NCBI GenBank assembly: GCA_025352965.1
Contig: JANXRP010000134.1
Span: 11,179 to 75,178 of the forward strand
DNA: 64,000 nucleotides
Direction of reading: 5' to 3'
Source of the DNA: Comamonadaceae bacterium
Lineage (GTDB): Bacteria > Pseudomonadota > Gammaproteobacteria > Burkholderiales > Burkholderiaceae_C
Every line of letters begins with the position of its first letter. The stretch's first letter is position 1. Positions 24,587 through 54,884 of the stretch are shown one piece after another. The notes under the pieces were generated by a model. That model worked only from the letters and a program-made list of their open reading frames with translations, searched no databases and was not told where the DNA came from. The position numbers were made by a program, and so were the translations under genes.

Positions 24587-24590
24587 TACG

Positions 24591-26060: not shown

Positions 26061-26065
26061 TCTTC

Positions 26066-28245: not shown

Positions 28246-28625
28246 CAACTTCAACCATCAAGCCACTTGGTATTATTTTATTTGCGCATGGATCACGTGA
28301 CCCGCTGTGGTCTCAACCGATCGAAGCTATAGCGCATGAAATTTCTAAGGTATCTTCTGCTTATGAAGTTCGTTGCGCTTATCTAGAACTAATGCCACCC
28401 AACCTAGAAGATGTGGTCATTGAGCTAGCAGGGTTTGGCATTAGTCACATTCGCATTGCCCCTATGTTTTTAGGTGTCGGCAAACACGCCAGGGAAGACT
28501 TGCCTGCGATGACAACGAGACTTGCAAAAAACTATCCTAACATCCAACTTGAGCTTATGCCTTCAATCGGTGAGCACCCAGAACTCATTGCCGCTATTTC
28601 AAACATTCTTACCAAGAGCCTTTAG
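28242..28625 (+). CDS. CbiX-type (short) sirohydrochlorin chelatase-like protein
   Basis: 127 aa. GIILFAHGSRDPLW and the PMFLGVGKH pattern of CbiX(S). The ATG overlaps the lptG stop (ATGA). Confidence 0.6.
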   Translation: MTTSTIKPLGIILFAHGSRDPLWSQPIEAIAHEISKVSSAYEVRCAYLELMPPNLEDVVIELAGFGISHIRIAPMFLGVGKHAREDLPAMTTRLAKNYPNIQLELMPSIGEHPELIAAISNILTKSL

Positions 28626-35648: not shown

Positions 35649-37487
35649 ATGGAATTCAATTTAGAACGCTTCGAGCATGCAGTTAATACACGTCAATATG
35701 AAGCGTCGGGACGCGAATTGATGCAGCTCTTGCAGATGTTAGATAACCACTATGGCAACTTAGCACCCAGCTTTTCAGCGAAGCCCATGGCCGCATTGGC
35801 TAATGGGGATGATGTTGATGCGCACATTTTGACTCGCATCGCCTCGGCAATCTCCCACCTATTTTTGGATCCAGGGTTCACACTTTCGCCACAAGGCTAT
35901 GCACAAGCATTGCAACTACAGCGATGGCTGGGCACACTATTTGCCGTGACGCCCTTTCGAAATGCCGATCACGTGATTCGAGCCTTGAATAACCTTGGCT
36001 GGGACAAGGATGAGCTACAGCTAACCCCAGACAACTTAAATAAATTTGCCTTACTGGCTTTCCCTGAATCCGAGATTCCTATCAATTTGGATGGGCTTTG
36101 GGCTGCCAACCCGGCCTTGGCGGTCAGTTTGTGCATGCTATGGATGGCGCCAAGATTTTTGGCCTCGCCGTCTGCACATGCCAAGCGTGAACTTGTATTG
36201 GGCTGGCTACCAGAAAAATTACAACAGATGGATTTGGATCAACTTCCGTCTGGCATCATGCACGATGTCTACATGCATTGCAGCTATGCGGATCGACCCG
36301 ATCGTCATCGCATCAAAGGTGCGATCAACGTTATCGTGCGCAACAAAATGCTGCAAAACGGGTTATCGGATGCACCACCACTAAACCCTTTGCCCAAAGG
36401 TGAAAAACCAACCATGTTGGTCGTACTCGAATGGTTCAATGGATCCCACTCGATTTACCGCACGCACTCGACCACCATGCGTGCTGCGCGCCGCCACTTT
36501 CATGTTGTCGCGATGGGCTATCCTAGCAACGTAGACGACTTAGGGCGTGCCGTATTTGATGAATTTATTGAAATCAAAGGTGGCTCGATGATCGAGCAAA
36601 TGGCACATATCCGTGATACGGCTATTGCCAAGCAAGCACGACTTTTCTATATGCCAAGTGTGGGGATGTTTCCGCTCACCATGTTCGCCTGTAATTTGCG
36701 CTTCGCTCCGCTACAAGTGATGGCGCTCGGCCATCCTGCTACCACGCATTCACCGCACATGGACTACGTTGTGGTCGAAGACGACTACGTCGGCCTTGAG
36801 AGCTGCTTCTCGGAGAAGCTACTACGTCTGCCCAAAGATGCGCTGCCCTATGTGCCCTCTGCCGCAATGCCAGAAAACTTAGTTCCCAATCTGCGTGACA
36901 ACGACGGCAAAAATCCAGACATAGTCAAGATTGCGATTTGCTCCACCACGATGAAGCTCAACCCGCGTTTTTTGCAAACGTGCAAAGCGATTGTGGACAC
37001 AGCCAAAACACCTGTGCTTTTCGAGTTTATGGTTGGACAGGCAACCAGTTTGATACATCCGCAAGTTAGCCGCGTGATTAAGCAATTCTTAGGGGATAAC
37101 GCGCATGTCAATCGCCATCTGGGTTATCCAGAGTACATGGCCAAAATCAATGAATGCGATATGTTCATCAATCCATTCCCTTTTGGTAATACCAATGGCA
37201 TTATTGACACCTTGACTTTAGGTCAAGTCGGCGTGTGCCTCAACGGTACAGAAGTATTCGAGTGCATTGACCGCGGCTTGTTTGGTCGTCTTGGCGTGCC
37301 CAGCTGGATGGCCACTAATTCCATCGAAGAGTACATCGCCGCAGCGGTACGCTTGATTGACAACCCAAAAGAGCGTCTCAAATTACGCCGCGAAATGATT
37401 GCTAAAAATGGTGTGCAAATTTTGTTCACAGGACGTCCCGAGATTTTTGGCGACCGGTTGATTGAACTGGTACACAAAGTGGCCTAA
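35649..37487 (+). CDS. HMW1C/ApNGT-like cytoplasmic N-glycosyltransferase (GT41, no TPRs)
   Basis: 612 aa. All-alpha N-domain plus GT-B. The motif strings HDVYMHCSY, HSIYRTHSTTM, LGHPATTHSPHMDYVVVEDDYVG, LLRLPKDALPYVPS, STTMKLNP and NPFPFGNTNGIIDTLTLG match my recollection of the H. influenzae HMW1C / A. pleuropneumoniae NGT family. They also parallel the OGT motifs GYPGT..MDY and NGHTTGMD. Confidence 0.75.
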   Translation: MEFNLERFEHAVNTRQYEASGRELMQLLQMLDNHYGNLAPSFSAKPMAALANGDDVDAHILTRIASAISHLFLDPGFTLSPQGYAQALQLQRWLGTLFAVTPFRNADHVIRALNNLGWDKDELQLTPDNLNKFALLAFPESEIPINLDGLWAANPALAVSLCMLWMAPRFLASPSAHAKRELVLGWLPEKLQQMDLDQLPSGIMHDVYMHCSYADRPDRHRIKGAINVIVRNKMLQNGLSDAPPLNPLPKGEKPTMLVVLEWFNGSHSIYRTHSTTMRAARRHFHVVAMGYPSNVDDLGRAVFDEFIEIKGGSMIEQMAHIRDTAIAKQARLFYMPSVGMFPLTMFACNLRFAPLQVMALGHPATTHSPHMDYVVVEDDYVGLESCFSEKLLRLPKDALPYVPSAAMPENLVPNLRDNDGKNPDIVKIAICSTTMKLNPRFLQTCKAIVDTAKTPVLFEFMVGQATSLIHPQVSRVIKQFLGDNAHVNRHLGYPEYMAKINECDMFINPFPFGNTNGIIDTLTLGQVGVCLNGTEVFECIDRGLFGRLGVPSWMATNSIEEYIAAAVRLIDNPKERLKLRREMIAKNGVQILFTGRPEIFGDRLIELVHKVA

Positions 37488-37506
37488 CTCATAGAACCTA
37501 AATAGC

Positions 37507-38745
37507 ATGCGACTTATTTATTGCGACACTGCACTGGCCGATTTAAATGGACACTACTATTCAGAGTGTCTGATGACAGTCAATGCGTTTGCAAATGCAG
37601 GTATTTTTTCGCATATTTTTGGTCATGTCGCGGCTAAAGATGTTAATTTAGCGCCACTGAACGTCGCACCTCATTTTCGAACGCAGAAGTGGGAATGGCT
37701 TGGTTTTTCTAACGACTTTTTATGCGGCCCCATAGAGTCACTACTCATTTCAGCCCATATCACCGCAGAAGACTTGGGGCGAATTGAAGGCTGGACAAAC
37801 ACTGACATCTTGTGCTGGAATCACATTACGCCTTCGGACTTATTTGCCTTAGGACTGTGGGGTAAAAATTTGCCCATAGACCAGACACCGCATTTTCTAT
37901 TGCACGTAGGTATACAGCCAGGTATCTACCCTATTGTTGAAGATGGCGAGCTATCGGGTCGCTTCGAAATTCTTGATCGCACCTCTGCTGAGCAATTCAG
38001 ACTAGCGGCTAAGCGTCTGCCGCAGCACATAAAAGATCGGGTTAAATTTATTGCATACGACGAATTAGCGGCCAAAAGTTACCAAGAAGTCTTGTTGCAA
38101 CCGGTGCATGTTGTGCCATTTTGCTCGTATGAAAATGCTAATCCTATTCAACGAAGCTCGTCAAAAATTACTGTCTCATACCTAGGCGTCCCCAGAGAGC
38201 CCAAAGGCTTTGGCACGGCCCCTTATGTTATTGAGCAACTCTTAACACAGACGCCTGAACATGTGAACTTTATGGTTCAGTTAGGTGGGGATTGGAAAAT
38301 TGGGGGAGACAGATCAAAAGATGAGCAGCAAATGATGCGTGATCTTGCAAGCAAAAATCCACGCGTCAAGGTTGTCCAAGGACCGCTTACCGAAACCGAG
38401 TGGCAAGGCATGTTAGACAACACCGACTTGCTGCTCCTTCCCTACCATCAGCAATCTTATGCCAGTCAAACTTCTGGCCCCTGCATGGAGGCGCTAGCGA
38501 ATGGCATTGTGCAGGTTGCAACCAATAAAACAACCATGGAGTTTGCACTTAAACGGCATGGTATGCCAGGTGTGTTGATTGACGAACCCACGGTTGAGGA
38601 AACGGTTCGTGGCGCGTTATCCGCCATTGCAAATTATGATGCGCTGGCCGTAAAGGCTTATGCTGCAAGCCAGCAATGGAGAAGTTTTCATAACCGTGAG
38701 AATTTTGCTGCACATGTTTTTAGACTATTGCAAGCTAACGTTTGA
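37507..38745 (+). CDS. Soluble GT-B fold glycosyltransferase (GT4-like)
   Basis: 412 aa with no TM segments. C-terminal Rossmann half with LLLLPYHQQSYASQTSGPCMEALANGIVQV resembles the GT4 E-x7-E region. Starts 19 nt after the NGT gene. Confidence 0.55.
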   Translation: MRLIYCDTALADLNGHYYSECLMTVNAFANAGIFSHIFGHVAAKDVNLAPLNVAPHFRTQKWEWLGFSNDFLCGPIESLLISAHITAEDLGRIEGWTNTDILCWNHITPSDLFALGLWGKNLPIDQTPHFLLHVGIQPGIYPIVEDGELSGRFEILDRTSAEQFRLAAKRLPQHIKDRVKFIAYDELAAKSYQEVLLQPVHVVPFCSYENANPIQRSSSKITVSYLGVPREPKGFGTAPYVIEQLLTQTPEHVNFMVQLGGDWKIGGDRSKDEQQMMRDLASKNPRVKVVQGPLTETEWQGMLDNTDLLLLPYHQQSYASQTSGPCMEALANGIVQVATNKTTMEFALKRHGMPGVLIDEPTVEETVRGALSAIANYDALAVKAYAASQQWRSFHNRENFAAHVFRLLQANV

Positions 38746-38797
38746 GTTAAAGAAATTGAATGCAACCAATCAGAACACAAGGACGAAAGGATAGGAT

Positions 38798-39526
38798 TTG
38801 AACCAAGTCAATAAACCGATTGTCACCCAAATTGAGGAGGCAGTTCAAAACATTCCCGGATGGTGCCCCATTGACCAACTGTTGTTGTTATTTACCCTCG
38901 CCCATACCAGTGCCGATCTAGACGGTGATATTCTTGAACTTGGATCGTGGTGCGGACGCTCAGCCGTGGCTATGGGAATGGCGATCCAGTTATCAGGAAA
39001 CTCAAAGCTCCACTGTGTTGATTTGTTTCCTAAAAAAGAAGACTGGCACAAAACTCCTGATGGTGACTATTCTCTTTCGGTCAATATTGATGATCGTAAT
39101 GTCGTGGCATACGCCCACGGTGGACAAACTGTTTGGGCGGAAGCCTTCGAGCGAGATATTGCTCCTGTTTACGAAAAATTTCCAGGCACCCTTGAGGCTT
39201 TCAATACTTTCGTTGCAGAAAATGGATTGTCAGAACAACTCATTCCTTTTAAGGGCGACTTACAAAGTTTTATCAAAAATGCGTCTTCCGGCTTGAAGCT
39301 TCGTATGGCATTTATTGATGGTGATCACAACTATCATGCGGTTGCAAAAGACATTGAAATTATTGAACGGTTTTTGGTGCCTGGCGCTTGGGTTTGTTTT
39401 GATGATGCCTTTTCGAATTATCCAGGAGTTAATAAAGCCATTGAACTACACATCATTCATAGTGGGAAATATAGTCAATTTCAACAAATGACACGGAAAT
39501 TTTTTATTGCGCGGTATATAGGGTAA
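38798..39526 (+). CDS. Class I SAM-dependent methyltransferase (Methyltransf_24/CmcI-like)
   Basis: 242 aa. Motif I GDILELGSWCGRSAV and FIDGDHNYHAV. The only plausible start is TTG at 38798. Confidence 0.6.
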   Translation: MNQVNKPIVTQIEEAVQNIPGWCPIDQLLLLFTLAHTSADLDGDILELGSWCGRSAVAMGMAIQLSGNSKLHCVDLFPKKEDWHKTPDGDYSLSVNIDDRNVVAYAHGGQTVWAEAFERDIAPVYEKFPGTLEAFNTFVAENGLSEQLIPFKGDLQSFIKNASSGLKLRMAFIDGDHNYHAVAKDIEIIERFLVPGAWVCFDDAFSNYPGVNKAIELHIIHSGKYSQFQQMTRKFFIARYIG

Positions 39527-39563
39527 TTGTGATTAGGCTCTGAATTTATAATTAACCATTAAT

Positions 39564-40514
39564 ATGAAAATACTTGTTACAGGTGCCTGTGGGTATAAAG
39601 GGCATGTTCTCGTTCCTAAGCTACTAATCAAAGGCTATAAAGTAATTGCCTTTGATCTACAATGGTTTGGGAATTTCTTAGATCCACATCCAAATTTGAC
39701 CATTATAAAAGGTGATGTTCGTGAGATAAATACTATTCCCTTAGATGGTGTGGATTGCATTATTCATCTGTCATCAATCGCAAATGATCCTTGTGGCGAT
39801 TTAGATCCCAAGTTGACTTGGGAAGTTAGCGCACTAGCGACGATGCAACTAGCTGACAAAGCGAAAAGAGCAGGTGTTAAACGTTTTATATATGCATCCT
39901 CAGGTAGTGTTTATGGAATCAAAGATGAATTGCAAGTAACTGAAGATTTAGAATTAACCCCTATCTCAGAATACAATAAAACAAAAATGGTCGCTGAGCG
40001 AGTTTTATTGAGCTACGACAATGATATGACAGTACAGATAGTGCGTCCTGCTACTGTCTGCGGCTATTCACCACGTATGCGTTTGGATGTTTCTGTTAAT
40101 TTATTAACCATGCAAGCCATTACAAATAAGAAAATTACAGTCTTTGGTGGCGATCAAGTGCGACCAAATATTCATATTGAAGACATAACAGATTTATATA
40201 TTTTTTTAATTGAGCATCCGGAATTAAAAGGTATCTACAATGCTGGCTTTGAAAATATTTCCATACTAGATATTGCAAAACTAGTGACTAAATTTATTGA
40301 TGCAGAAATAATCTTAACCCCATCTAATGATCCTCGATCTTATCGAATCAATTCTGATAAATTACTAGCCACTGGATTTAAACCTCAAAAAACAGTTTTA
40401 AATGCTATAGAAGAAATAATTGAAAAATACAATCAAGGAAAATTAAAAAATGAAGATAAATTTCATAATTTAATTTGGATGCAAAAAACTATATTAAATA
40501 AAATAACACACTAA
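39564..40514 (+). CDS. NAD-dependent sugar-nucleotide epimerase/dehydratase (extended SDR)
   Basis: 316 aa. Contains VTGACGYKGHV (GxxGxxG) and the catalytic YNKTK. Confidence 0.8.
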   Translation: MKILVTGACGYKGHVLVPKLLIKGYKVIAFDLQWFGNFLDPHPNLTIIKGDVREINTIPLDGVDCIIHLSSIANDPCGDLDPKLTWEVSALATMQLADKAKRAGVKRFIYASSGSVYGIKDELQVTEDLELTPISEYNKTKMVAERVLLSYDNDMTVQIVRPATVCGYSPRMRLDVSVNLLTMQAITNKKITVFGGDQVRPNIHIEDITDLYIFLIEHPELKGIYNAGFENISILDIAKLVTKFIDAEIILTPSNDPRSYRINSDKLLATGFKPQKTVLNAIEEIIEKYNQGKLKNEDKFHNLIWMQKTILNKITH

Positions 40515-40517
40515 CAT

Positions 40518-41117
40518 ATGAATAACGTGCACAATCTTGAAGATCATTTTGAGCAATATTCGGCTAAGTTGCAACGGATACTTGCCAGCACTGAATGGGA
40601 TAATGTATCACAGCTTGCACAAGATCTTCTATCATGTTGGAAAAGGAAGTCCCATGTATATATATGTGGTAATGGCGGTAGTGCTGGAAACGCCAATCAT
40701 CTAGCCAATGATTTTATTTATGGCATTGCAAAAATGACAGGTGCCGGATTGCGGATATCAAGCTTATCCACAAATACCTCAGTTATTACCTGCTTAGCGA
40801 ATGATATTGGTTATGAAAAAATTTACTCAGAGCAACTTGCAGTACTTGGTCAAAAGAATGATCTTCTTATTACATTAAGTGGCAGTGGAAATTCCTCCAA
40901 CATCATAAATGCTCTCAAGCAAGCAAAGGAGATGGAGATAAAGTCATACGCAATACTAGGATATGATGGCGGCGCTTGCAAAGAAATTGCAGATATATTT
41001 ATACATTTCCCTGTGAATGACATGCAAATGGCAGAAGATTTACAACTGATATCAGGTCATATGATTATGCAATGGCTCTATAACAATAAAAATCAGATTC
41101 AATCAAATATTCATTGA
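40518..41117 (+). CDS. SIS-domain sugar-phosphate isomerase, GmhA-like paralog
   Basis: 199 aa. Contains VYICGNGGSAGNANHLANDF and TLSGSGNSSNI, as in phosphoheptose isomerase. Confidence 0.75.
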   Translation: MNNVHNLEDHFEQYSAKLQRILASTEWDNVSQLAQDLLSCWKRKSHVYICGNGGSAGNANHLANDFIYGIAKMTGAGLRISSLSTNTSVITCLANDIGYEKIYSEQLAVLGQKNDLLITLSGSGNSSNIINALKQAKEMEIKSYAILGYDGGACKEIADIFIHFPVNDMQMAEDLQLISGHMIMQWLYNNKNQIQSNIH

Positions 41118-41150
41118 TAACTAATTACATTTCTATTATTAATTGTTAAA

Positions 41151-42308
41151 ATGTTAAATAAAAAAAATATAATTTTAATGGGGATGCAAATATCCGATCG
41201 AATAATATTGATGGGAAAATTATGGAAGAATTTAAATCATACTGTAATTTTACTATATTGCAATGAGAGTATTGTTTTCACAAACTTAAAAAACGAATCA
41301 TTTGATGTCATAATAAAAGCACAAAATGCTGATGAATTATTAACCATAGCAATGAAAATCAGCAACTCAATTTTTCATTATTTCAACTACGGCCCCGATC
41401 AACTTGGATATTATCTTTATTCAAATAAATTCACTTATATATATGATTATAAGGATTTATTTTCAAACGTAGTACATCAAACTATTGATGATAACTCATT
41501 AGCAATTGAAAAAGAGATTGTAAAAAACTCTGTTGCCATTACCCGTAGGGATGAGCAAATATTTTACTATCTAAAAATGAATAATATTGATTATGATCTA
41601 GAAAAAATAATATATTCCCCAGGCTATTTTAACAAAGAGATTGAGTATGAAAAAAAAGTCATATCAAATCTATCAAATTATTATGTAGATAAACCTATCA
41701 AAATAATTATGAGTGGCGGCTACTTATCGGAAAGTAATCCTGAATCTATATTATATGAAGGCATATCACATTTAGTTAAACAATTTGCAGGTAATGGACT
41801 GGAAATTGATTTGATTGGCAATTTTTCATCCTCTTTATCACATGAAGCCAGCAATTTCCCATTGCTCACTGAGCTTGTTAGTAGAAAATGGGTGAATATT
41901 TTACCTATGACTAATTCAGAGGATTTTGATAATGTTTTATTAAATTATGATTTTGCAATGCATATGTTTAATTTTGATGTAATTGAATCAGATTACACGA
42001 TTCAATTTAAAAATTCAAATTTATTAGATTACGGCGGAAGCGCTAGAATATACTCATTTATAAAAGCTAATCTTCCAATCATCCTTGGAAAATCGCTACC
42101 TCATATTAAAAATATATTGGAAAATTCAGGGTTCGCAATTGAATACCGTGATGAATACAAAGACTCCATGAAGAATATTTTAAATAATTATAGAGTAGCA
42201 AATTATAAAAAAGAAATATATCCATATCGAGATAAGTTCAATGATAGAGTTGCTACGATTAAATTTAAAGAAAACATAAAACAAATTGGAAAGGAAATAT
42301 ATGCGTGA
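41151..42308 (+). CDS. Hypothetical protein; possibly a very divergent GT-B-like enzyme
   Basis: 385 aa, extremely AT-rich codons, no TM segments, and no motif I can name. Two Rossmann-like halves are suggested (NIILMG..., IKIIMSGG...IDLIGN...). The coding call rests on ORF length and operon packing. Confidence 0.4.
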   Translation: MLNKKNIILMGMQISDRIILMGKLWKNLNHTVILLYCNESIVFTNLKNESFDVIIKAQNADELLTIAMKISNSIFHYFNYGPDQLGYYLYSNKFTYIYDYKDLFSNVVHQTIDDNSLAIEKEIVKNSVAITRRDEQIFYYLKMNNIDYDLEKIIYSPGYFNKEIEYEKKVISNLSNYYVDKPIKIIMSGGYLSESNPESILYEGISHLVKQFAGNGLEIDLIGNFSSSLSHEASNFPLLTELVSRKWVNILPMTNSEDFDNVLLNYDFAMHMFNFDVIESDYTIQFKNSNLLDYGGSARIYSFIKANLPIILGKSLPHIKNILENSGFAIEYRDEYKDSMKNILNNYRVANYKKEIYPYRDKFNDRVATIKFKENIKQIGKEIYA

Positions 42309-42999
42309 AATTGAAAAAAAAATCCGCGCCTTTGAAATGCGATTGCAAGCCAATATGAAGGAAGTTTTTTGTCCAGTTCATTTGTCACTAGGGCATGAGT
42401 CGGTGGCAGCAGACTTACATGAAGTTATGCAGTCTGGTGATTGGCTATTTTCAACACACCGGAATCATCATCATTATTTAGCAAAGGGCGGATCAGAAGA
42501 AAAGCTTTGGGATGAAATAATGGGATTAAAGTCTGGCATCAATGGTGGATTTGCTGGCTCACAAGCGGTTGTAGATCCAAGCATTAATTTTCACTCTAGT
42601 GCAATATTAGGTGGCCTTATAGGCGTTGCAGCAGGGACTGCAATGGCTTTAAAATTAAATAATAGCAATGATATATCGATTTGTGGCATAGGTGACGCAG
42701 GAACTGAGCAAGGTGTATTTTGGGAGAGTCTAAACTTTGCTGCATTGCATAATTTGCCTGTTGCATATATTTGTGAAAACAACGGAAAGTCTGTTGATGC
42801 ACTAATTGAAGAAAGGCAGGCAATGCCTATCAGCTCAAGAGTTGCAGCTTTTGGAGTCACTACATTTAATAATGTGAAAGTAGCTATCGATTTTTGTAGA
42901 AAAGAAAAAAAACCTGTATTTTGCGAAATTAAAGTCAACTTAGAATGTGCACACATCAACATGGCAACCATGCTTGATTTGTGTGCGCATACAGCTTAA
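42301..42999 (+). CDS. Thiamine-diphosphate-dependent dehydrogenase E1 alpha-like subunit (short form)
   Basis: About 233 aa. Contains HLSLGHESVAADL...STHRNHHHYLAKGG (the E1-alpha HLxxGQEA...YRxH pattern). The ThDP motif is GIGDAGTEQGVFWESLNFAALHNLPVAYICENNG (GDG...NN). The start is placed at the ATG at 42301 after AAGGAA. Confidence 0.7.
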   Translation: MREIEKKIRAFEMRLQANMKEVFCPVHLSLGHESVAADLHEVMQSGDWLFSTHRNHHHYLAKGGSEEKLWDEIMGLKSGINGGFAGSQAVVDPSINFHSSAILGGLIGVAAGTAMALKLNNSNDISICGIGDAGTEQGVFWESLNFAALHNLPVAYICENNGKSVDALIEERQAMPISSRVAAFGVTTFNNVKVAIDFCRKEKKPVFCEIKVNLECAHINMATMLDLCAHTA

Positions 43000-43020
43000 T
43001 ATATTTTGAAGGTATTCATA

Positions 43021-43677
43021 ATGAATATGAATTTAAAAAATACAAAAAAAACATTTGCTTCAGAAATAAATCGTGCGCTTCATGACTCATTAGAGGCAGA
43101 TTCAAACGTAGTCGTTGGTGGGCAACTCGTTAAGTATGGAGTTGCTGGTTTGACAACTGGTCTTTATGATAAATTCAAGAATCAATTTATTACATACTCT
43201 GTATCGGAATCTTTAATGAATTCTAGTGCGATGGGATTAGCACTTGCTGGCAAGCGTGTCGTTATGATTCATGTCAGGATTGATTTTTTAGCTAGCGGTA
43301 TGTGCGCGTTAGTCAATCATGTCCCAATATGGTATAAAAAAGGATTGAAAATGCCTATTACCTATATTTGTCAAGTAGGTAAAGGAATGGGGCAAGGTGC
43401 CCAACATAGTAAAGATCTCACTAGTTGGTTTCAAAATTTTGAAGGCTGGACCGTAAAAATACCTGAAACGCCACAACAAGCGTTCGATATGCTTCAAGAG
43501 TCTATAAAAGGTGATAAGCCAGTTATGTATGTTATACATCGCGAGCTTTTCGATTTACCAGAAGGAAAAAAAATTACTATCAATAAAGAAATTAAATTAT
43601 GCGGAGCTAGCCAAGAGCATGAATCAGATTTTTACGGAGCTGAATTCATTTCAGCTAAAAGTAAACTTATAAAGTAA
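43021..43677 (+). CDS. E1 beta-like subunit (transketolase pyrimidine-binding domain only)
   Basis: About 218 aa. FASEINRALHDSLEADSNVVVGGQLV...YSVSESLMNSSAMGLALAGKRVVMIH follows the E1-beta Pyr-domain pattern. The C-terminal transketolase domain is absent. Confidence 0.7.
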   Translation: MNMNLKNTKKTFASEINRALHDSLEADSNVVVGGQLVKYGVAGLTTGLYDKFKNQFITYSVSESLMNSSAMGLALAGKRVVMIHVRIDFLASGMCALVNHVPIWYKKGLKMPITYICQVGKGMGQGAQHSKDLTSWFQNFEGWTVKIPETPQQAFDMLQESIKGDKPVMYVIHRELFDLPEGKKITINKEIKLCGASQEHESDFYGAEFISAKSKLIK

Positions 43678-43734
43678 GCTTCTCCGAAAGTAAAAAATCG
43701 CATCTAACCGCATTCAGTAGTTAAAAATTTTATA

Positions 43735-46373: not shown

Positions 46374-46382
46374 ATTAAAAAC

Positions 46383-47822: not shown

Positions 47823-48565
47823 TGCGAGCCCTGCTTTTAGCAGCCGGCCTTGGGACACGACTAAGACCAATTACAAATGTGATGCCAAAATGTTTAGTGA
47901 AAATTAATGGCCGGCCACTACTTGATTATTGGTTGGAACTCTTAAGTCAAGCGGGCATCACTGAGGTGCTTATTAATTTGCATTATCTGCCAGAACAAGT
48001 TTTAGATTATATAAAAACTTGCAAATATCCAATAACAATAACAACTGCATTTGAGGAAAATTTATTGTCAACGGCTGGAACAATTTTAAAAAATAAAGAT
48101 TTTTTAAAAAAAGAGCCTTTTTTTGTTATACATGCAGATAATTTATCAATATTCAATGTAAATGAATTTAAGGAAAAGTTTTATAGGCGAGAATCTACCG
48201 TGGAAATTACGATGATGACATTTTATACAGATTCCCCCAAAGAGTGCGGCATAGTGGAGTTAAACAGTAATAATATTGTTTCCGCTTTTCATGAAAAAGT
48301 GACCTCGCCTCCAAGCAATCTCGCAAATGGAGCTGTATACATTATTTCACCTCTAGTTGTTGATTTCATATCAAGTCTTAAATTAACAGTGATAGATTTT
48401 AGTACTCAAGTACTTCCGCATTTTATGGGGCGTATCAATACTTACCACAATCATTTTTATCATCGAGATATCGGAACGATCACCAGCCTCGAAATTGCAG
48501 AAAAAGAATATCCTAAATATTCAAAGCTTTATCATCAACATTTTATACAAACATCCCTTTTATAA
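47822..48565 (+). CDS. Sugar-1-phosphate nucleotidyltransferase (HddC/RmlA-fold)
   Basis: Start at MRALLLAAGLGTRLRPIT (47822, a TAATG overlap with the upstream stop). G-x-G-T-R-L nucleotide-binding motif. Confidence 0.75.
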   Translation: MRALLLAAGLGTRLRPITNVMPKCLVKINGRPLLDYWLELLSQAGITEVLINLHYLPEQVLDYIKTCKYPITITTAFEENLLSTAGTILKNKDFLKKEPFFVIHADNLSIFNVNEFKEKFYRRESTVEITMMTFYTDSPKECGIVELNSNNIVSAFHEKVTSPPSNLANGAVYIISPLVVDFISSLKLTVIDFSTQVLPHFMGRINTYHNHFYHRDIGTITSLEIAEKEYPKYSKLYHQHFIQTSLL

Positions 48566-48617
48566 AATCAACACAAGATTCTATAAACATCGCTGAAATA
48601 GCAACTCTAATTGACAC

Positions 48618-49598
48618 ATGATTATTTCTAAAACTCCTCTTCGCGTTAGTTTTTTTGGTGGTGGAACCGACTTACCAGAGCACTTCTCCAAACATGGTGG
48701 AGCTGTGCTTGGTACGGCAATTGATAAGTTCGTCTACATTTCAGCCTCACGTTTTCCATCCGAGCTATTTGATTACAGTGTGCGGCTGGCTTATAGTAAA
48801 GTTGAAAACGTGAAGAGCGTTGCTGACATACAACATGCCCCTGTTCGCGAAATTTTAAAACTCAACGATATCGAAAAAGATATTGAAATTAGCATTTCCG
48901 CAGATCTTCCCTCCTTTTCTGGGCTGGGCAGCTCTAGCAGCTTTACGGTCGGCATGCTTAAAGCCATCAAAGCTTATAAAAACGAACATATTGCCACGAA
49001 TATCTTAGCTCGTGAAGCCATTCGTATTGAAAGAGATGTCCTCAAAGAGGCTGTGGGCTTTCAAGATCAAGTATTTGCGGCGTTTGGTGGATTTAATATT
49101 ATTGAATTTAGTGGGCAAGATCGAATGCGTGTTGAGCGGCTGTCACTCAGCCTCGATCGTGAGCAAGAGTTAAGGTCGCATTTAATGATGTTCTATACGG
49201 GCATCACTCGGCGTGCGCAAGGTATCGAAAAAACAAAAATTGCCAACATTTCTGCGCTTGAAGGTCGCCTAACGTCCATGCGCCATATGGTGGATGATGC
49301 TCATACCGTATTGACATCCAAATCTTCACTCACTCGTTTGGGCGAGTTATTGCACAAAACTTGGATAGAAAAAAGGCAACTAACCAGTGATGTTAGCAAT
49401 CCAACTATTGACGAAATGTATAAAAAAGCGCTAACAGCTGGTGCTATTGGCGGCAAGTTACTCGGAGCTGGAGGTGGAGGATTTATGCTGTTTTTTGTAC
49501 CACCAGATAAGAAAGTTGCTGTTAAATCTGCGCTAAAAAATTATCATGAAATCACATTTAATATCAACGCTGCGGGCAGTACGATTATTCATTCTTAA
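48618..49598 (+). CDS. GHMP-family sugar kinase, HddA/WcbL-like (D-glycero-alpha-D-manno-heptose-7-phosphate kinase type)
   Basis: 326 aa. N-terminus MIISKTPLRVSFFGGGTDLPEHF, GHMP motif II PSFSGLGSSSSFTVG, and C-terminal KLLGAGGGGFMLF. Confidence 0.75.
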   Translation: MIISKTPLRVSFFGGGTDLPEHFSKHGGAVLGTAIDKFVYISASRFPSELFDYSVRLAYSKVENVKSVADIQHAPVREILKLNDIEKDIEISISADLPSFSGLGSSSSFTVGMLKAIKAYKNEHIATNILAREAIRIERDVLKEAVGFQDQVFAAFGGFNIIEFSGQDRMRVERLSLSLDREQELRSHLMMFYTGITRRAQGIEKTKIANISALEGRLTSMRHMVDDAHTVLTSKSSLTRLGELLHKTWIEKRQLTSDVSNPTIDEMYKKALTAGAIGGKLLGAGGGGFMLFFVPPDKKVAVKSALKNYHEITFNINAAGSTIIHS

Positions 49599-49609
49599 GC
49601 GTCAAAATA

Positions 49610-50176
49610 ATGAGTAATTTTAAAATTCAGCTAGATTCAGTTGCATCCAGTTTAGATCTTTTACATGCTTCTACGGAAACGTCTATCCAAGAAGCAATCG
49701 CCTTACTAAGTCATGCGCTTAAAGTTCGACTGCCTGTTTTAGTCTGCGGCAATGGCGGATCAGCCGCTGACGCACAGCATATTGCTGGAGAAATGGTGGG
49801 CAAATTTCTTGCCGAACGCAAAGCCTTAAATGTGCGTGCGCTGTCAACGGATACTTCTGTGATTACGGCTTGGGCTAACGATGTGAGCTATGACACGGTC
49901 TTTTCTAGGCAAGTGGAGGCCTATGGGCAGCCAGGTGGCGTGCTTTGGGCCATATCGACAAGTGGCAACTCTAAAAATGTGATTGAAGCAGCCTTGCAAG
50001 CTAAAAAACAAGACATGAAAGTAATTGGTATGACGGGCGAAGGAGGCGGGGCATTGGCAAACTTATGCGATATATTGATTGCCGCTCCATCCAAATATAC
50101 GCCTCGCATCCAAGAGATGCATATGATGATTTACCATCACATTTGTGAAATGATTGAAAAAAAATTTGTTAAATAA
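49610..50176 (+). CDS. gmhA: Phosphoheptose (sedoheptulose-7-phosphate) isomerase
   Basis: 188 aa. Contains VLVCGNGGSAADAQHIAGEMVGKF and ISTSGNSKNV. Confidence 0.8.
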   Translation: MSNFKIQLDSVASSLDLLHASTETSIQEAIALLSHALKVRLPVLVCGNGGSAADAQHIAGEMVGKFLAERKALNVRALSTDTSVITAWANDVSYDTVFSRQVEAYGQPGGVLWAISTSGNSKNVIEAALQAKKQDMKVIGMTGEGGGALANLCDILIAAPSKYTPRIQEMHMMIYHHICEMIEKKFVK

Positions 50177-50192
50177 ATTTAAAAGGTTAAGT

Positions 50193-51125
50193 ATGAAGAT
50201 ATTGGTCACTGGTGGTGCCGGTTATATTGGATCCATCTTGGTTCCTAAGTTATTAAATGAAGGACATGCGGTGACGGTCATCGATAACTTCATGTTCAAG
50301 CCTAACTCTTTAGCTGAATGCTGCGCAAATGATGGCTTTAACGTCATTCGAGGCGACGCTAGAAATGAAGAACTCGTAAAAAAAGAAATGGCGAGCGCTG
50401 ATGTCATCATTCCATTGGCCGCCTTGGTAGGTGCACCACTTTGCAAAACTGATCCCATCGGTACGCAAACAACAAACCAAGACGCTGTAGAAATGATTTG
50501 TCGCCTAGCTAGCAAAGATCAACGCATATTGATGCCCGTCACCAATAGCGGCTACGGTATCGGCGATAAGGACAGCGAGTGCACAGAAGAGTCCCCGCTA
50601 CGTCCCATCTCCCTTTATGGTGTGACCAAGGTTAAAGCAGAAGAGGCTGTACTCGCTCGCGAAAATAGCATTACATTTCGTCTAGCTACAGTGTTTGGCA
50701 TGGCGCCGCGCATGCGAACGGATCTGCTAGTCAACGACTTCACTTACCGCGCCGTACATGATCGCGCTGTCGTTATTTTTGAAGGCCACTTCAAACGGAA
50801 CTACATTCATATTCAAGATGTGGTGCGTGCATTTTGTTATGGCATTGATCACTTTGATGCGATGAAAAGCAATGCGTACAACGTCGGACTTGAATCAGCT
50901 AATCTTTCCAAACTTGAACTGGCTGCAGCCATTCAAAAACACGTTCCCAACTTCGTTTTTTTAGAAGCACCGATTGGTGAAGATCCCGATAAGCGCGATT
51001 ACATTGTGTCTAATGCAAAACTAGCAAAAACAGGTTTTGTCACAGAGTGGGGACTGGATCGTGGCATCAAAGAGCTCATTAAAGGCTACACCATTTTGCG
51101 AGACAGCGTCTACGCCAATGTTTAG
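50193..51125 (+). CDS. NAD-dependent sugar-nucleotide epimerase/dehydratase/reductase (extended SDR)
   Basis: Start at MKILVTGGAGYIGS (50193). Catalytic YGVTK. Confidence 0.8.
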   Translation: MKILVTGGAGYIGSILVPKLLNEGHAVTVIDNFMFKPNSLAECCANDGFNVIRGDARNEELVKKEMASADVIIPLAALVGAPLCKTDPIGTQTTNQDAVEMICRLASKDQRILMPVTNSGYGIGDKDSECTEESPLRPISLYGVTKVKAEEAVLARENSITFRLATVFGMAPRMRTDLLVNDFTYRAVHDRAVVIFEGHFKRNYIHIQDVVRAFCYGIDHFDAMKSNAYNVGLESANLSKLELAAAIQKHVPNFVFLEAPIGEDPDKRDYIVSNAKLAKTGFVTEWGLDRGIKELIKGYTILRDSVYANV

Positions 51126-51130
51126 ATTGA

Positions 51131-52336
51131 ATGATTGATATGCAGTGCCGCGTTTGTGATTCAACCGAGCTAACACCCGTTGTTGATCTTGGCGATCAGC
51201 CTTGGTGTAACCATTTCTTGCAACTTGAAGAAGTGGGCAAAGAGCCCTATTACCCACTTCGGTTGGTTTACTGCAAAAATTGCCGTACATCGCAGCTGGA
51301 TTACACCGTTAAAAAAGAAATTATGTTCGGTGACCACACCTACTTATCAGGTGTCACAAAATCCCTTGACGCCCATTTCAGAGAAGTGGCTGAGCAAGTA
51401 GATATTCGATTCTTCAAAGATAAGAAGCAAAAATCTGTGCTGGATATCGGCTCCAATGACGGGACGCAGCTCAAGCACTTCCAGCGCTTAGGCTACGACG
51501 TGCTAGGTGTTGAATCGTCAATGACGACGGCCAAAATGGCGAACGATGCGGGTGTGCCCACATTGCAAGCTTTCTTTAATGAAGCAACTATTAAAAAGCT
51601 TGACAGAAAATTTGATATTTTTAATGCCTCAGGTGTCTTCTTCCATTTGGAAGAGTTGCACTCGGTTTGCGAAGGCATCCGACTAGGCTTAAATGACGAT
51701 GGCGTGTTTGTTGTTCAATTTCTCTACATGAAAAGCATCATGGAGAATCTAGCCTTTGATCAAATCTACCACGAGCATTTGCTCTACTACACGCTAGAGA
51801 CCATTGAAACACTGCTCAATCGCCACGGATTAGAAATGTTTGATGCACGGCTAGCCTCGATTCACGGCGGATCCATCATCGGCTACGTCGGGCACAAAGG
51901 CGCAAGACCCGTTTCGGCGCAATTGATAGCTATGCGTCAAACTGAAGATGCCAGCGACTGCAACAAGATTGAGGCCTATCACGCCTTCCACGACCGCATC
52001 AAGCAGATGAAGTTAGAGAACGTAGCTTATCTGCGCGCAGCAAAAGCGAGTGGCAAGCGTATTTGGGGGTTTGGTGCGCCAGTCAAAGGCAACACCATGC
52101 TCAATTATTTTGGCGTAGGACCCGATTTAATTGAATGTTTAACTGAAAAAAATAAGCTCCGCAAAGGTCTCTACTCGCCTGGCATGCATATCCCTATCGT
52201 CATAGAAGATGAGTTAACTGAAAAACCTGATGTTTATTACGTATTTGCATGGAATTTCAAAAACGAAATTCTTAAAAATAATCAACACCTCATAGACGCT
52301 GGCGTCGAGTTTTATTTCCCTGTTAATCCAGCTTAA
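51131..52336 (+). CDS. NDP-sugar C-methyltransferase (TylC3/EvaC-type architecture)
   Basis: 401 aa. N-terminal Zn-ribbon CRVCDS...CKNC, SAM motif VLDIGSNDGTQL, and a C-terminal C-methyltransferase-type domain. Confidence 0.75.
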   Translation: MIDMQCRVCDSTELTPVVDLGDQPWCNHFLQLEEVGKEPYYPLRLVYCKNCRTSQLDYTVKKEIMFGDHTYLSGVTKSLDAHFREVAEQVDIRFFKDKKQKSVLDIGSNDGTQLKHFQRLGYDVLGVESSMTTAKMANDAGVPTLQAFFNEATIKKLDRKFDIFNASGVFFHLEELHSVCEGIRLGLNDDGVFVVQFLYMKSIMENLAFDQIYHEHLLYYTLETIETLLNRHGLEMFDARLASIHGGSIIGYVGHKGARPVSAQLIAMRQTEDASDCNKIEAYHAFHDRIKQMKLENVAYLRAAKASGKRIWGFGAPVKGNTMLNYFGVGPDLIECLTEKNKLRKGLYSPGMHIPIVIEDELTEKPDVYYVFAWNFKNEILKNNQHLIDAGVEFYFPVNPA

Positions 52337-52349
52337 TTGGACTGCCGCA

Positions 52350-53240
52350 ATGCCCTCTTCCCAAGCCATTCAAGTGCTGCAACATGCGTTATCTAGTCTC
52401 ACGCATCCCATCGTCATCGCTGATCTAGGATCCTCAGGCAATGCCGTGACGCCCTTGCCTGATTGGTTTACTAAATATGCAGTGTCGATCTCAATTGATG
52501 CCTTAACACCTGGTGAATCGAACAGCAGCCTTTTTTCAAAAAATATTGTTGTATCAGGCTTGGCCGTCAGTGATGCTATTGGCTTAGGCACGCTGATTGA
52601 GCGCCAGTTCTCTATGTGTAGTGGACTCAATGAGGTTTACCCAAATGAAGTAGCAACATACGGGATTGAGTCGTTTTATCAAGAGGTAAAGCGGATCAAC
52701 ATGGCAACAACGACTTTGCCAGAAATACTGAAAGAGCATGGACTACTCCAGATTCATTACCTCAAATTAGATCTTGAAGGCTCGGATCTTGCCGTGTTGG
52801 ATTCGTGCGCTGGTGTACTCAAAGCATGCGCCTTATTGCAAGCAGAGCTGCGCAATACACCGCTTTATGTTGGCGAAAAAACATTGGGAGAGAGCCTCAC
52901 CCATATCAATCGCCAAGGTTTTGACTTGATTGATATGAAAAATGAATTTTGGAAACGAAAAACACCCAACCGCCACCGAGTCAGTCATGGAAATCTCGCT
53001 TACTCGGATGCGGTATTTACAAGGGAAATAAAACCTGAAAACGATATCGCAATCGTCATCCACGCACTCCTGCTTCATTTTTATGGCTACACCAATTTAG
53101 CGGAGCATTGGTTAATTGATCAAATGATGACCGATACGCAGCTGCGCCTAGCCTTATTTGGAGTGCTGTTCGATCCTGAAACACTCCTGCAGCAGCCTTT
53201 CAATCATGCTTTCTTTACCCATTTAGCACTTGCTCGTTAA
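52350..53240 (+). CDS. FkbM-family methyltransferase
   Basis: 296 aa. IVIADLGSSGN and the FkbM hallmark IHYLKLDLEGSDLAVL. Confidence 0.55.
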   Translation: MPSSQAIQVLQHALSSLTHPIVIADLGSSGNAVTPLPDWFTKYAVSISIDALTPGESNSSLFSKNIVVSGLAVSDAIGLGTLIERQFSMCSGLNEVYPNEVATYGIESFYQEVKRINMATTTLPEILKEHGLLQIHYLKLDLEGSDLAVLDSCAGVLKACALLQAELRNTPLYVGEKTLGESLTHINRQGFDLIDMKNEFWKRKTPNRHRVSHGNLAYSDAVFTREIKPENDIAIVIHALLLHFYGYTNLAEHWLIDQMMTDTQLRLALFGVLFDPETLLQQPFNHAFFTHLALAR

Positions 53241-53252
53241 AAACCCCCGATC

Positions 53253-54164
53253 ATGAACATTCTTTTAACAGGCGGCAGTGGATTTTTAGGTACGGCACTT
53301 AATCAATTTTTACAAAGCGCTGGTCATGCCGTGCAATCGCTGGATTCAAAAAATTGTGATCTGACGAGAAGTGATAGTCTTTTAAGCTTCAACCACACGA
53401 AATGGGATCAAATTATTCATCTAGCAGCTTGGACGCAAGCGGGTGATTTTTGTCTCAAACATCCAGGTGAGCAATGGGTGATTAACCAGAAGATCAACAC
53501 GCATGTACTAGATTTTTGGCAAAGCCAACAACCACAAGCCAAGCTCGTATTCATGGGCACCAGCTGCGCCTACGCAGAAGGGTCAAATCTGCGCGAATCA
53601 GAATATATGGATGGTGAGCCAACGCCCAGCCTCTATACCTATGCGATGACCAAGCGAATGCTGTATCAAGGTGCTCGAGCCTTACATCAGCAGTTTGGCT
53701 TGAACTACCTGTGCATTGTCCCCTCCACGCTTTACGGCACGGGTTACCACACGGATGGACGTCAAATGCATTTTATTTTCGATTTAATTCGCAAGATTAT
53801 TCGTGGTCATGAATACGCGGAACCTGTTGTGCTCTGGGGTGATGGCCTGCAAAAAAGAGAGCTCGTTTGGTTGGATGACTTTATTCACATCATGTGGGAT
53901 CTCAATCAAAAAACAGCCAATGATATTTTTAATATTGGCGCAGGCACAGAACACACGATTCGACACTTTGCAAGGCTTATCTGTGCATCCGTTGGCTACG
54001 ATGTATCCAAAATTGAATATGACACAGCACGTTATGTGGGTGCAACTTCTAAATGTTTGAATATAGACAAGACAACGAACGCACTTAAAGAGCTACCGCA
54101 AACGGAGCTCAGTCTTGGTATTCAAAAAATCGTGGCTTGGTTTTATGAACATAAAGCTTACTAA
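53253..54164 (+). CDS. NAD(P)-dependent sugar-nucleotide epimerase/reductase (GDP-fucose-synthase-like SDR)
   Basis: 303 aa. Contains LTGGSGFLG and the catalytic YAMTK. Confidence 0.75.
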   Translation: MNILLTGGSGFLGTALNQFLQSAGHAVQSLDSKNCDLTRSDSLLSFNHTKWDQIIHLAAWTQAGDFCLKHPGEQWVINQKINTHVLDFWQSQQPQAKLVFMGTSCAYAEGSNLRESEYMDGEPTPSLYTYAMTKRMLYQGARALHQQFGLNYLCIVPSTLYGTGYHTDGRQMHFIFDLIRKIIRGHEYAEPVVLWGDGLQKRELVWLDDFIHIMWDLNQKTANDIFNIGAGTEHTIRHFARLICASVGYDVSKIEYDTARYVGATSKCLNIDKTTNALKELPQTELSLGIQKIVAWFYEHKAY

Positions 54165-54179
54165 TCAGCGTCTCTTTGC

Positions 54180-54884
54180 ATGAAAAAATTAACAGCATTG
54201 ATACTGGCTGGTGGATTCGGAACAAGGCTGCAAAGCGTTGTCAAAGATGTCCCCAAACCCATGGCCGACGTGCGGGGTGAACCATTTTTAGCGCACCTCA
54301 TACGCTACTACCAATTACAAGGCGTGACTCAGTTTGTGTTGTCCGTTGGGTACAAGGCTGACACCATCATCGATTATTTTAGCGATAGCTTTGAGTCAGC
54401 CTCCATACAATACATCCGCGAGAATGTGCCGCTTGGTACTGGCGGTGCGATCAAATACGCGCTCAACCATCTTGCAACCGATTGGCAACCAGATTTGATC
54501 CTCAACGGTGACACGTGGTACGAGGCCAATGTCTCTGAGCTGATTGGATTTGCGATGGCTAAGCATGTCCCTGTTTCTCTATCAGTCAAACCCTTGCCGT
54601 TAAATGATCGGTACGGATCAGTCGTACTTGAAGCAAGTGGACGTATCAGCGGTTTTCGCGCAGATCCAAGTGATCACGCTAATATCAACGCAGGCTGTTA
54701 TTACATCCAAGCTGCGACCTTGCAAACTATCCTTGCCGGCTATCCAGATACCTTTTCGTTTGAATCTAGCTGCCTACCCCAGCTCGCTCAAGCAGGTCAA
54801 CTTTCAGGCTATATTTGCGATGCCACGTTCTTAGATATTGGCATACCCGAAGACTACGCCAAAGCAGCTAGCTTGCTGCCTTGA
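54180..54884 (+). CDS. Sugar-1-phosphate nucleotidyltransferase, HddC-like
   Basis: 234 aa. Contains [22 protein letters not shown]. The 3' end overlaps the convergent galU by 17 nt. Confidence 0.75.

Follow-up and report, generated by a model that had tools for sequence, protein, structure and literature searches.

An HMW1C-like glycosyltransferase gene heads an exchangeable, exporter-less nucleotide-sugar cassette in a freshwater Comamonadaceae lineage

We analysed a 64,000-nucleotide stretch of contig JANXRP010000134.1 (positions 11,179 to 75,178; "the window" below) from a Comamonadaceae bacterium belonging to a freshwater lineage represented by metagenome-assembled genomes. At 35649-54884 the window carries a string of 19 genes on the + strand that begins with a gene for an HMW1C-like protein N-glycosyltransferase (NGT) and continues with genes for nucleotide-sugar enzymes, methyltransferases and further glycosyltransferases. 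An earlier note, made from the DNA letters alone, had described 19 packed same-strand genes between an iron-containing alcohol dehydrogenase (Fe-ADH) gene and galU; every item it listed was found where it had been placed, and profile searches of the island proteins (Pfam, NCBIfam) agree with the gene families it named. We are certain of a novel gene organisation centred on an enzyme already known, with predicted new sugar chemistry and two glycosyltransferase families of the GT-B fold.

All 19 open reading frames (ORFs) are intact, without internal stops, and tightly packed. No intergenic gap exceeds 57 bp, and three pairs of genes overlap: E1 alpha with the orphan GT-B gene, GT2 with the radical SAM gene (16 nt), and the ATG of NTP1 with the stop of the HldE-like gene (1 nt). 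galU is convergent with the island, and its 3' end overlaps the 3' end of the last cassette gene. The GC content is 0.52-0.54 in the flanks, 0.50 in the NGT gene and 0.25-0.46 in the other 18 genes. The features, in order, are as follows (L-numbers denote contigs or loci of other genomes; SDR, short-chain dehydrogenase/reductase; SAM, S-adenosylmethionine; ThDP, thiamine diphosphate; UDP, GDP, CDP and NDP, uridine, guanosine, cytidine and unspecified nucleoside diphosphates).

34447-35601, upstream of NGT: Fe-ADH (Pfam).
35649..37487, +: NGT, predicted HMW1C-like UDP-glucose:protein N-beta-glucosyltransferase, 612 residues; HMW1C_N, HMw1_D2, GT41; conserved left anchor.
37488..54907: replaceable slot, without counterpart in the closest sister genome, L006 (blastn).
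37507..38745, +: GTB412, soluble GT-B glycosyltransferase, 412 residues; first slot gene in heptose-type cassettes; weak, sub-cut-off Glycos_transf_1 match.
38798..39526, +: Methyltransf_24 SAM methyltransferase; Pfam 69.8 bits; conserved in L171.
39564..40514, +: SDR1, extended SDR nucleotide-sugar epimerase/dehydratase; Pfam Epimerase 120 bits; no NCBIfam equivalog reached.
40518..41117, +: GmhA1, sedoheptulose-7-phosphate isomerase-like; SIS_2; TIGR00441 127.9 bits (cut-off 209).
41151..42308, +: orphan GT-B glycosyltransferase, 385 residues, GC 0.27; no Pfam or NCBIfam match.
42301..42999, +: short E1 alpha-like ThDP subunit, 232 residues; E1_dh 98 bits, profile positions 14-220 of 300; start refined with the L171 gene calls.
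43006..43677, +: E1 beta-like subunit, 223 residues; Transket_pyr 69 bits; pyrimidine-binding domain only, without Transketolase_C.
43735..44997, +: radical SAM enzyme, 420 residues; Radical_SAM 34 bits; CxxxCxxC motif; 95% identical in L171.
44982..46373, +: GT2 glycosyltransferase, 463 residues, long C-terminal extension, GC 0.25; Glycos_transf_2 47.6 bits; PDB 5tze/5tz8 at E 1e-7.
46383..47822, +: reversed HldE-like bifunctional enzyme; CTP_transf_like at residues 8-91, PfkB at residues 166-467.
47822..48565, +: NTP1, sugar-1-phosphate nucleotidylyltransferase; NTP_transferase 112 bits.
48618..49598, +: HddA-like GHMP heptose-7-phosphate kinase; GHMP_kinases_N/C; NF049969 167.6 bits (cut-off 600).
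49610..50176, +: GmhA2, sedoheptulose-7-phosphate isomerase; TIGR00441 199.8 bits, just below the cut-off of 209.
50193..51125, +: SDR2; PDB 6vo6 at E 3e-116 over 308 residues.
51131..52336, +: NDP-4-keto-sugar 3-C-methyltransferase family; Methyltransf_13 and Methyltransf_14 165 bits; PDB 4rv9 at E 6e-70; TcaB9 at E 2e-52.
52350..53240, +: FkbM-family methyltransferase; Methyltransf_21 37 bits.
53253..54164, +: SDR3, GDP-fucose-synthase-like C4 reductase/epimerase; NF047922 128 bits, sub-cut-off; PDB GDP-fucose synthases at E 2e-22.
54180..54884, +: HddC-like heptose-1-phosphate guanylyltransferase, last slot gene; NF049965 166 bits (cut-off 300).
54868..55749, -: galU, UTP-glucose-1-phosphate uridylyltransferase; TIGR01099 354 bits, above the cut-off of 327; conserved right anchor.

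The earlier note had stressed what the island lacks. A hydropathy scan (19-residue windows, threshold 1.6) agrees that no ORF has long hydrophobic segments: every island ORF has at most two separate hydrophobic windows, and the few windows above 1.6 (maximum 1.81) sit within soluble Rossmann-type enzymes. By hydropathy and Pfam, the island contains no Wzx, Wzy, Wzm or polyprenyl-phosphate transferase. Absence of an O-antigen ligase, also claimed, holds for the island only, since a member of that family lies upstream in the window. No terminator-like intergenic site lies within the NGT-headed string, including the 19-bp gap between NGT and GTB412 on the same strand; co-transcription of the two is putative. 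Promoter and terminator scans as such did not differ from shuffled sequence. RfaH ops/JUMPstart motifs gave just two matches, at chance level and both intragenic. No tRNA, integrase or other mark of a mobile element was found at the slot edges (the sole tRNA in the window is at 9.4 kb).

An assembly chimera as the source of the GC drop was considered and rejected, as independent contigs contain the same junctions. On the independent metagenome scaffold L171 the genes from NGT to GT2 stand in the window's order, with 84% nucleotide identity, and the L010 contig covers the right-hand part through galU. Because these independent scaffolds share it, the arrangement is not an assembly artefact.

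The first gene encodes a genuine NGT of the HMW1C type, predicted to be functional and most probably with UDP-glucose as donor. In phmmer searches its product matched PDB 8p0q, 3q3e and 8j30 at E ~1e-178 over residues 4-607, and its alignment with the solved NGTs of Aggregatibacter aphrophilus (AaNGT) and Actinobacillus pleuropneumoniae (ApNGT) spans the whole protein. In the solved enzymes, Arg177, His214 and Asp215 (DVYM motif) read the sequon, and K441, Q469, H495, Y501, N521 and D525 contact UDP-glucose (PMC10507012, PMC10466321). By alignment position, the sequon-recognition residues are kept as R169, H205 and D206-V-Y-M209, of which R169 and D206 are invariant among 16 homologues, and the UDP-glucose pocket is kept as K436, Q464, H490, Y496, N516 and D520. 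H362 also matches a functional residue of AaNGT/ApNGT. What the earlier note had called NGT-like thus retains all of the residues shown to matter. The score against the NCBIfam NGTferase equivalog (732.7 bits) is under the cut-off of 1000, a threshold seemingly tuned to proteins far nearer to the characterised enzymes. An exact-sequence look-up of the protein returned no identical record.

Since the donor pocket is one for UDP-glucose, attaching a heptose would fall to other transferases. We also considered whether the NGT itself uses GDP-sugars, an idea suggested by the NGT-fcl-gmd operons described below and by SPINDLY, a GT41 fucosyltransferase. With the UDP-glucose pocket fully conserved, this is unlikely. 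PMC11329713 reports a Yersinia pestis HMW1C-like protein as an O-linked N-acetylglucosamine transferase.

The NGT gene is the most constrained gene of the region. Its nonsynonymous divergence (dN 0.017) and its ratio of nonsynonymous to synonymous divergence (dN/dS 0.03) are the lowest among nine neighbouring genes compared. The protein is 97.5% identical in L006, where its neighbours are 84-93% identical, and 85% identical in L003, where LptF, LptG and TatD are at 53-67%. Recent transfer does not explain this conservation, because the synonymous divergence of the NGT gene resembles that of its neighbours.

What follows the NGT gene is not constrained in this way. The window's left flank (lptFG ... 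tmk, yceG, Fe-ADH, NGT) is syntenic with that of the sister genomes, and so is its right flank (galU, a patatin-like gene, tex). In blastn comparisons L006, L009, L013 and L003 align to window positions 37465-37477, at the end of NGT, and homology to L006 resumes at 54908, at the 3' end of galU. Exactly between NGT and galU lie at least seven different cassettes (modules A and B are defined below; fcl and gmd are GDP-fucose genes):

Window and L171: GTB412, module A and module B (L171 stops inside GT2).
L001 and L007: GTB412, a GmhA, an acetyltransferase, a reversed HldE, an NTP, a GT2 and module B.
L010: nothing but GTB412, a methyltransferase and module B.
L180: fcl, gmd, GTB412, a methyltransferase and module B.
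L006: FkbM, CDP-glucose pathway genes, a DegT enzyme and two small glycosyltransferase-like proteins.
L009 and L013: fcl, gmd, FkbM (L013 only), CDP-glucose genes, a split transketolase, an SDR and a GT2.
L003-L005: nothing beyond fcl and gmd.

What these genomes share is thus no fixed island; the unit consists of a conserved NGT gene and, after it, a slot whose content is exchanged. The NGT gene is co-oriented with the first cassette gene in all variants; its stop overlaps the start of the next gene (fcl) in L003, L008 and L013 and abuts it by one base in L009. The physical link of NGT to sugar genes that the earlier note had pointed out is real, in that sister genomes and an independent sample show it too. 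Two points did not hold in the form in which the note had put them. The NGT gene does not always travel with heptose genes (L006 carries a CDP-deoxyhexose cassette, and others carry GDP-fucose genes), and 35.6-39.5 kb is not a single NGT module, as GTB412 lies within the variable part.

The absence of membrane proteins extends to the sister cassettes. None was found among the cassette ORFs of L001, L003, L006, L008, L009 and L013; every ORF scanned there has at most one hydrophobic window. For L010, the single ORF without a homologue in the window was scanned for hydropathy; L180 was judged by its Pfam gene table, which lists soluble enzyme families and one gene without a Pfam match. Exporter families are absent from all cassettes with scanned ORFs or Pfam annotation. 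The adjacency to wzm/wzt or wzx/wzy that the earlier note had named as a sign of an ordinary O-antigen locus was seen neither in the annotated cassettes nor directly outside the slot.

The NGT-fcl-gmd arrangement occurs at L003 10001-13900, L013 10001-13927 and L180 2-3433, and its GC content is host-like in the two loci in which it was measured, L013 and L180. It may be the ancestral operon form. No model explains well why L003 has NGT-fcl-gmd without a second glycosyltransferase.

Within the window the slot genes fall into two modules in addition to GTB412 and the Methyltransf_24 gene. Module B (48.6-54.9 kb) comprises the HddA-like kinase, GmhA2, SDR2, the C-methyltransferase, FkbM, SDR3 and the HddC-like enzyme. 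For GmhA2 and the HddA- and HddC-like proteins these families are the best matches, yet all three scores are under the equivalog cut-offs. SDR2 is very close to PDB 6vo6, which we take to be Campylobacter jejuni Cj1427. Cj1427 is a GDP-heptose C4-dehydrogenase (PMC10680097). The SDR2 gene directly precedes that of the TylC3/TcaB9-type 3-C-methyltransferase (50193-52336). A coherent reading of these assignments is that module B would make a GDP-3-C-methyl-heptose. We know of no report of such a sugar.

Module A (39.5-48.6 kb) comprises SDR1, GmhA1, the orphan GT-B, the E1 pair, the radical SAM enzyme, GT2, the reversed HldE and NTP1. The HldE-like enzyme matches rfaE_dom_I (174 bits) and rfaE_dom_II (62 bits), both under their cut-offs, with the nucleotidyltransferase domain N-terminal and the heptose-7-phosphate kinase domain C-terminal. 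Homologues of the orphan GT-B adjoin genes for GmhA, reversed HldE and E1 alpha/beta in the unrelated low-GC contigs L173 and L175, where the reversed HldE-like genes are at 1403-2875 and 588-2039, respectively (46383-47822 in the window). Because this set recurs there, we regard module A as a travelling module; it is probably a mobile module for a second, branched or otherwise modified nucleotide-heptose.

There are three transferases besides the NGT: GTB412, the orphan GT-B and GT2. The earlier note had taken the first for a soluble GT-B enzyme and the second as possibly GT-B-like, and both model as GT-B folds. The AlphaFold2 model of GTB412 has a mean local confidence (pLDDT) of 65, and its best Foldseek matches are GT-B enzymes of the GT4/GT5 type (glycogen synthase, PimA, BshA, SdgB). 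Its nine close homologues are all within this lineage, and relatives at about 30% identity exist. GTB412 accompanies the GDP-heptose module in L001, L010 and L180. The orphan model has a pLDDT of 78 and a predicted template-modelling (TM) score of 0.82, and Foldseek finds GT4-like GT-B enzymes at a TM-score of ~0.6, including PglA and Gtf3. Judged by these models, GTB412 and the 385-residue orphan are two uncharacterised GT-B families. Of the methyltransferases, a separate FkbM gene is present in most of the NGT-galU cassettes.

To place the window's lineage, we surveyed about 150 more distant NGT loci (47-59% identity) in Herbaspirillum, Polynucleobacter, Paraburkholderia, Pseudomonas and others. 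About 60 of the 150 have TpsB or TpsA-like genes of two-partner secretion (TPS) within 10 kb. Only a handful matched our sugar-gene panel, mostly through a gmhA, and a Pfam census of 40 distant loci without TPS genes found only housekeeping families, and no sugar genes, among the 25 most frequent neighbours. The earlier note's sense that an NGT gene beside nucleotide-sugar chemistry is unusual is thus borne out, and nucleotide-sugar cassettes coupled to NGT are a peculiarity of the window's lineage.

Methyltransferases accompany NGT in other lineages. About 26 distant loci, the majority of them with TPS genes as well, have a homologue of a 587-residue methyltransferase with tetratricopeptide repeats (TPR) no more than 10 kb from NGT; in L086 (11940-13703) and L087, the two loci in which gene order was seen, it directly follows NGT. 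In P0076 (residues 653-780) and P0103 (residues 658-795) a C-terminal FkbM domain is fused to the NGT itself. This suggests that methylation commonly accompanies NGT glycosylation. When the FkbM and Methyltransf_24 proteins of the cassettes were compared with the domains fused to NGT elsewhere, only family-level similarity or none was detected.

The nearest outgroup NGT (70% identity; L011 2-4633, L178 2-4555) lies directly behind the gene for a repeat exoprotein of more than 1029 residues, with 31 NX(S/T) sequons in 1029 residues. The same loci encode a 493-residue lipoprotein with an Lcl_C domain. Going by gene content, the exoprotein and the lipoprotein are likely NGT substrates in the clade at 70% identity. 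The usual role of the NGT family is adhesin glycosylation, often with a methyltransferase partner. Many Burkholderiales NGT homologues (P0042, P0047, P0085 and others) carry the NCBI label "peptide transporter", which looks like a propagated misannotation.

The reading that we favour, though we would not give it an even chance, is that the conserved NGT and the lineage-variable cassette together diversify a glycan built in the cytoplasm, in which N-linked glucose primed by the NGT is extended by the cassette transferases. GalU, encoded at the other edge of the slot, would supply UDP-glucose. By its orthology and conserved residues, the NGT would place beta-glucose on Asn in NX(S/T) of one or more secreted, adhesin-type proteins encoded elsewhere. 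Two nucleotide-heptoses would then be made. In module B, the Cj1427-like C4-dehydrogenase, the 3-C-methyltransferase and the GDP-fucose-synthase-like reductase would lead to GDP-3-C-methyl-heptose. In module A, GmhA1 and the reversed HldE-like enzyme would make the second nucleotide-heptose; its probable modifying enzymes are SDR1, the radical SAM enzyme and the ThDP E1 pair, and what they add may be a two-carbon branch. GTB412, the orphan GT-B and GT2 may extend the N-linked glucose with these rare sugars, and the three methyltransferases may cap the glycan. We assign the GDP-heptose donor to GTB412 because the minimal cassette, L010, pairs GTB412, its only extra transferase, with the GDP-heptose module. 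The glycoprotein would then be exported, hence no lipid carrier or flippase would be needed. The enzyme families and the synteny were observed, and we infer each transfer step from them. In its widest form, the proposal is of lipid-carrier-free N-glycosylation in which exchangeable, O-antigen-like cassettes build lineage-specific oligosaccharides, with 3-C-methyl-heptose and a heptose modified by ThDP and radical SAM enzymes here and fucose or CDP-deoxyhexoses in the sisters; this form we advance with slightly more reserve.

The following observations were counted in favour of this cytoplasmic protein-glycan reading: (i) the NGT is genuine and constrained; (ii) its gene heads a same-strand, gap-poor string; (iii) the slot is replaceable and exporter-less; (iv) methyltransferases are partners of the NGT family; (v) the outgroup has a sequon-rich exoprotein; (vi) the minimal cassette, L010, pairs GTB412 with the GDP-heptose donor; and (vii) the rimO-ngt-agt locus of A. 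pleuropneumoniae offers a precedent. There, a GT4 enzyme encoded just downstream of ngt (Agt) elongates the N-linked glucose in the cytoplasm by adding alpha-1,6-glucose, and no adhesin gene is adjacent (PMC5303269, PMC12159676, PMC3983070). The window likewise has an NGT orthologue with identical functional residues, no adjacent adhesin or transporter gene, and a soluble, GT4-like GT-B gene directly downstream on the same strand; in both systems the NGT is conserved and the partner transferase narrowly distributed. The two differ in that Fe-ADH, instead of rimO, lies upstream here, the downstream transferase has no detectable sequence similarity to solved glycosyltransferases, and the block that comes next, which is swapped between relatives, has 17 more genes, with roles in nucleotide-heptose synthesis, C-methylation, branching and methylation.

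Several findings weigh against it. No PDB chain matches GTB412 by sequence at E <= 1, so that orthology with the A. pleuropneumoniae Agt is at most putative. The island encodes no GmhB (HAD phosphatase) by Pfam, and no sequon-rich or adhesin-like acceptor protein was found in the window. As a candidate substrate, an upstream 260-residue ORF was rejected, since it carries a KGCYxGQE motif, by which we take it to be YgfZ-like. The adjacency of NGT and cassette may be a single ancestral event, or an accident, kept by descent with recombination in the flanks; the many genomes that show it are for this reason not independent evidence. L003-L005 have NGT-fcl-gmd without a second transferase, and L180 has two GDP-sugar pathways with one extra glycosyltransferase. 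With fewer transferases than sugar pathways, transferases must sometimes lie elsewhere, and such cassettes weaken the model of a self-contained protein glycan. Bulky oligosaccharides on an unfolded adhesin would, moreover, have to pass through Sec and type V secretion. Finally, genes of lipopolysaccharide (LPS) synthesis lie 7-21 kb upstream, and LPS and capsule loci are classically marked by heptoses, 3,6-dideoxyhexose-type pathways and low GC.

In the strongest alternative, the cassette transferases act on lipid A-core at the cytoplasmic face, an acceptor that the earlier note had also named, MsbA flips the product as in lipooligosaccharide (LOS) synthesis, and the NGT gene merely borders a recombination hot spot, as gnd does at enterobacterial O-antigen loci. 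We consider this a serious possibility, if a somewhat doubtful one. The LPS neighbourhood is as follows:

14059-28245 of the window: a GT2, MsbA, an AT3-SGNH acyltransferase, an O-antigen-ligase-family protein, a GT9 heptosyltransferase, an ArnT-like PMT protein and LptF/LptG.

MsbA (614 bits, above its equivalog cut-off) is the nearest ABC protein, at 19 kb from the island. The cassettes, like LOS loci, which also lack membrane proteins, hold just soluble glycosyltransferases and nucleotide-sugar genes; their heptose, GDP-fucose and CDP-deoxyhexose chemistry is LPS-typical; they are of low GC and replaced between conserved flanks, as O-antigen loci are; and those with fewer glycosyltransferases than sugars suit transferases located elsewhere. 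However, an NGT gene that merely borders a hot spot does not fit the constant co-orientation with the first cassette gene or the stop overlaps and one-base abutment described above. Core-type GT9, GT8 and GT25 transferases are in no cassette examined, and the housekeeping genes tmk, holB, tatD, yceG and Fe-ADH separate the slot from the LPS genes. The family-level links of NGT to FkbM and other methyltransferases in other lineages also argue against LOS decoration.

Hypervariable O-antigen and LOS loci, such as galF-gnd in Enterobacteriaceae and waaC-waaF in Campylobacter, offer a further comparison. The locus resembles them in its low-GC, same-strand cassette of rare-sugar and transferase genes between conserved flanks, one of them of the galU/galF type. 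It differs in lacking Wzx/Wzy/Wzm/Wzt and an initiating transferase in the versions examined, and in that its left flank is a gene for a protein glycosyltransferase, which overlaps the first cassette gene in three sisters and abuts it in a fourth. It is improbable, in our view, that the slot provides the sugars and transferases of an ordinary O-antigen or capsule pathway whose initiating transferase and exporter lie elsewhere in the genome. The O-antigen-ligase-family and AT3-SGNH acyltransferase genes in the window do suggest an undecaprenyl-linked polymer, and the chemistry is typical of such polymers. Yet Wzy and Wzx normally lie within the variable locus and co-vary with the repeat unit, whereas no polymerase, flippase, ABC transporter or polyprenyl-phosphate transferase is present in any of the seven annotated cassette versions, and there is no exporter or polymerase gene directly outside the slot.

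An NGT-independent, cytoplasmic O-linked glycosylation of a flagellin, pilin or S-layer-type protein is less probable still: exporter-less cassettes of rare-sugar, soluble transferase and methyltransferase genes are a hallmark of flagellin glycosylation islands, and the Foldseek matches of the two GT-B models include the protein O-glycosyltransferases SdgB and Gtf3, but no Maf-type or TPR-type flagellin transferase is present, nor do the 64-kb window and the sister loci's 10-kb flanks hold any flagellar, pilus or S-layer gene.

Three other known systems share parts of the locus. The HMW1ABC and EtpBAC two-partner-secretion loci use the same transferase family, probably for the same NX(S/T) reaction; unlike them, the window has no tpsA or tpsB, and neither do the close relatives (L001-L013) within 10 kb. 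The C. jejuni capsular GDP-heptose pathway shares GmhA, HddA-like and HddC-like enzymes, a close relative of 6vo6 and a GDP-fucose-synthase-like reductase. The locus described here differs from it in the added TylC3/TcaB9-type 3-C-methyltransferase, which is outside the Campylobacter schemes in PMC10680097, and in having neither Kps export genes nor a GmhB in the cluster. As to adhesin glycosylation by soluble cytoplasmic transferases as a concept, the Gtf systems of serine-rich repeat proteins and the autotransporter heptosyltransferases Aah/TibC are comparable, the latter also in placing nucleotide-heptose on adhesins. Those systems are O-linked, are initiated by unrelated enzymes and are encoded beside their substrate genes.

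Searches of the accessible literature returned no description of an NGT gene heading nucleotide-sugar cassettes, of an NGT with heptose, or of this lineage. In reviews, HMW1C-like genes are of two sorts, one tied to two-partner secretion and one found beside "other transferases". To our knowledge, known NGT glycans range from one hexose to short glucose chains only. Complex, exchangeable N-glycans built without a lipid carrier are a plausible hypothesis. If the protein-glycan reading is correct, this would be the first natural NGT pathway to give complex and variable N-glycans without a lipid carrier or an oligosaccharyltransferase. Protein-linked glycans would then diversify by cassette exchange, as a counterpart of O-antigen diversity, and glycoengineers would have ready-made soluble enzymes with which to extend Asn-linked glucose in the cytoplasm. 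If the cassettes instead form a LOS locus, the system is an ordinary one with an unusual neighbour. Whatever the acceptor, the genes predict new chemistry, namely a GDP-heptose that is 3-C-methylated and a module, met with repeatedly, in which reversed HldE goes together with a short ThDP E1 pair and a GT-B transferase.

Two further features of the window are recorded here. Scattered among the genes of the LPS neighbourhood (14059-28245) are one for a large Orn/Lys/Arg decarboxylase and one of the band-7 family. At 28609-29271 on the - strand lies a gene for a 220-residue ankyrin-repeat protein whose N-terminus is hydrophobic; unusually for a free-living bacterium, it is conserved at the same position in all sister genomes.

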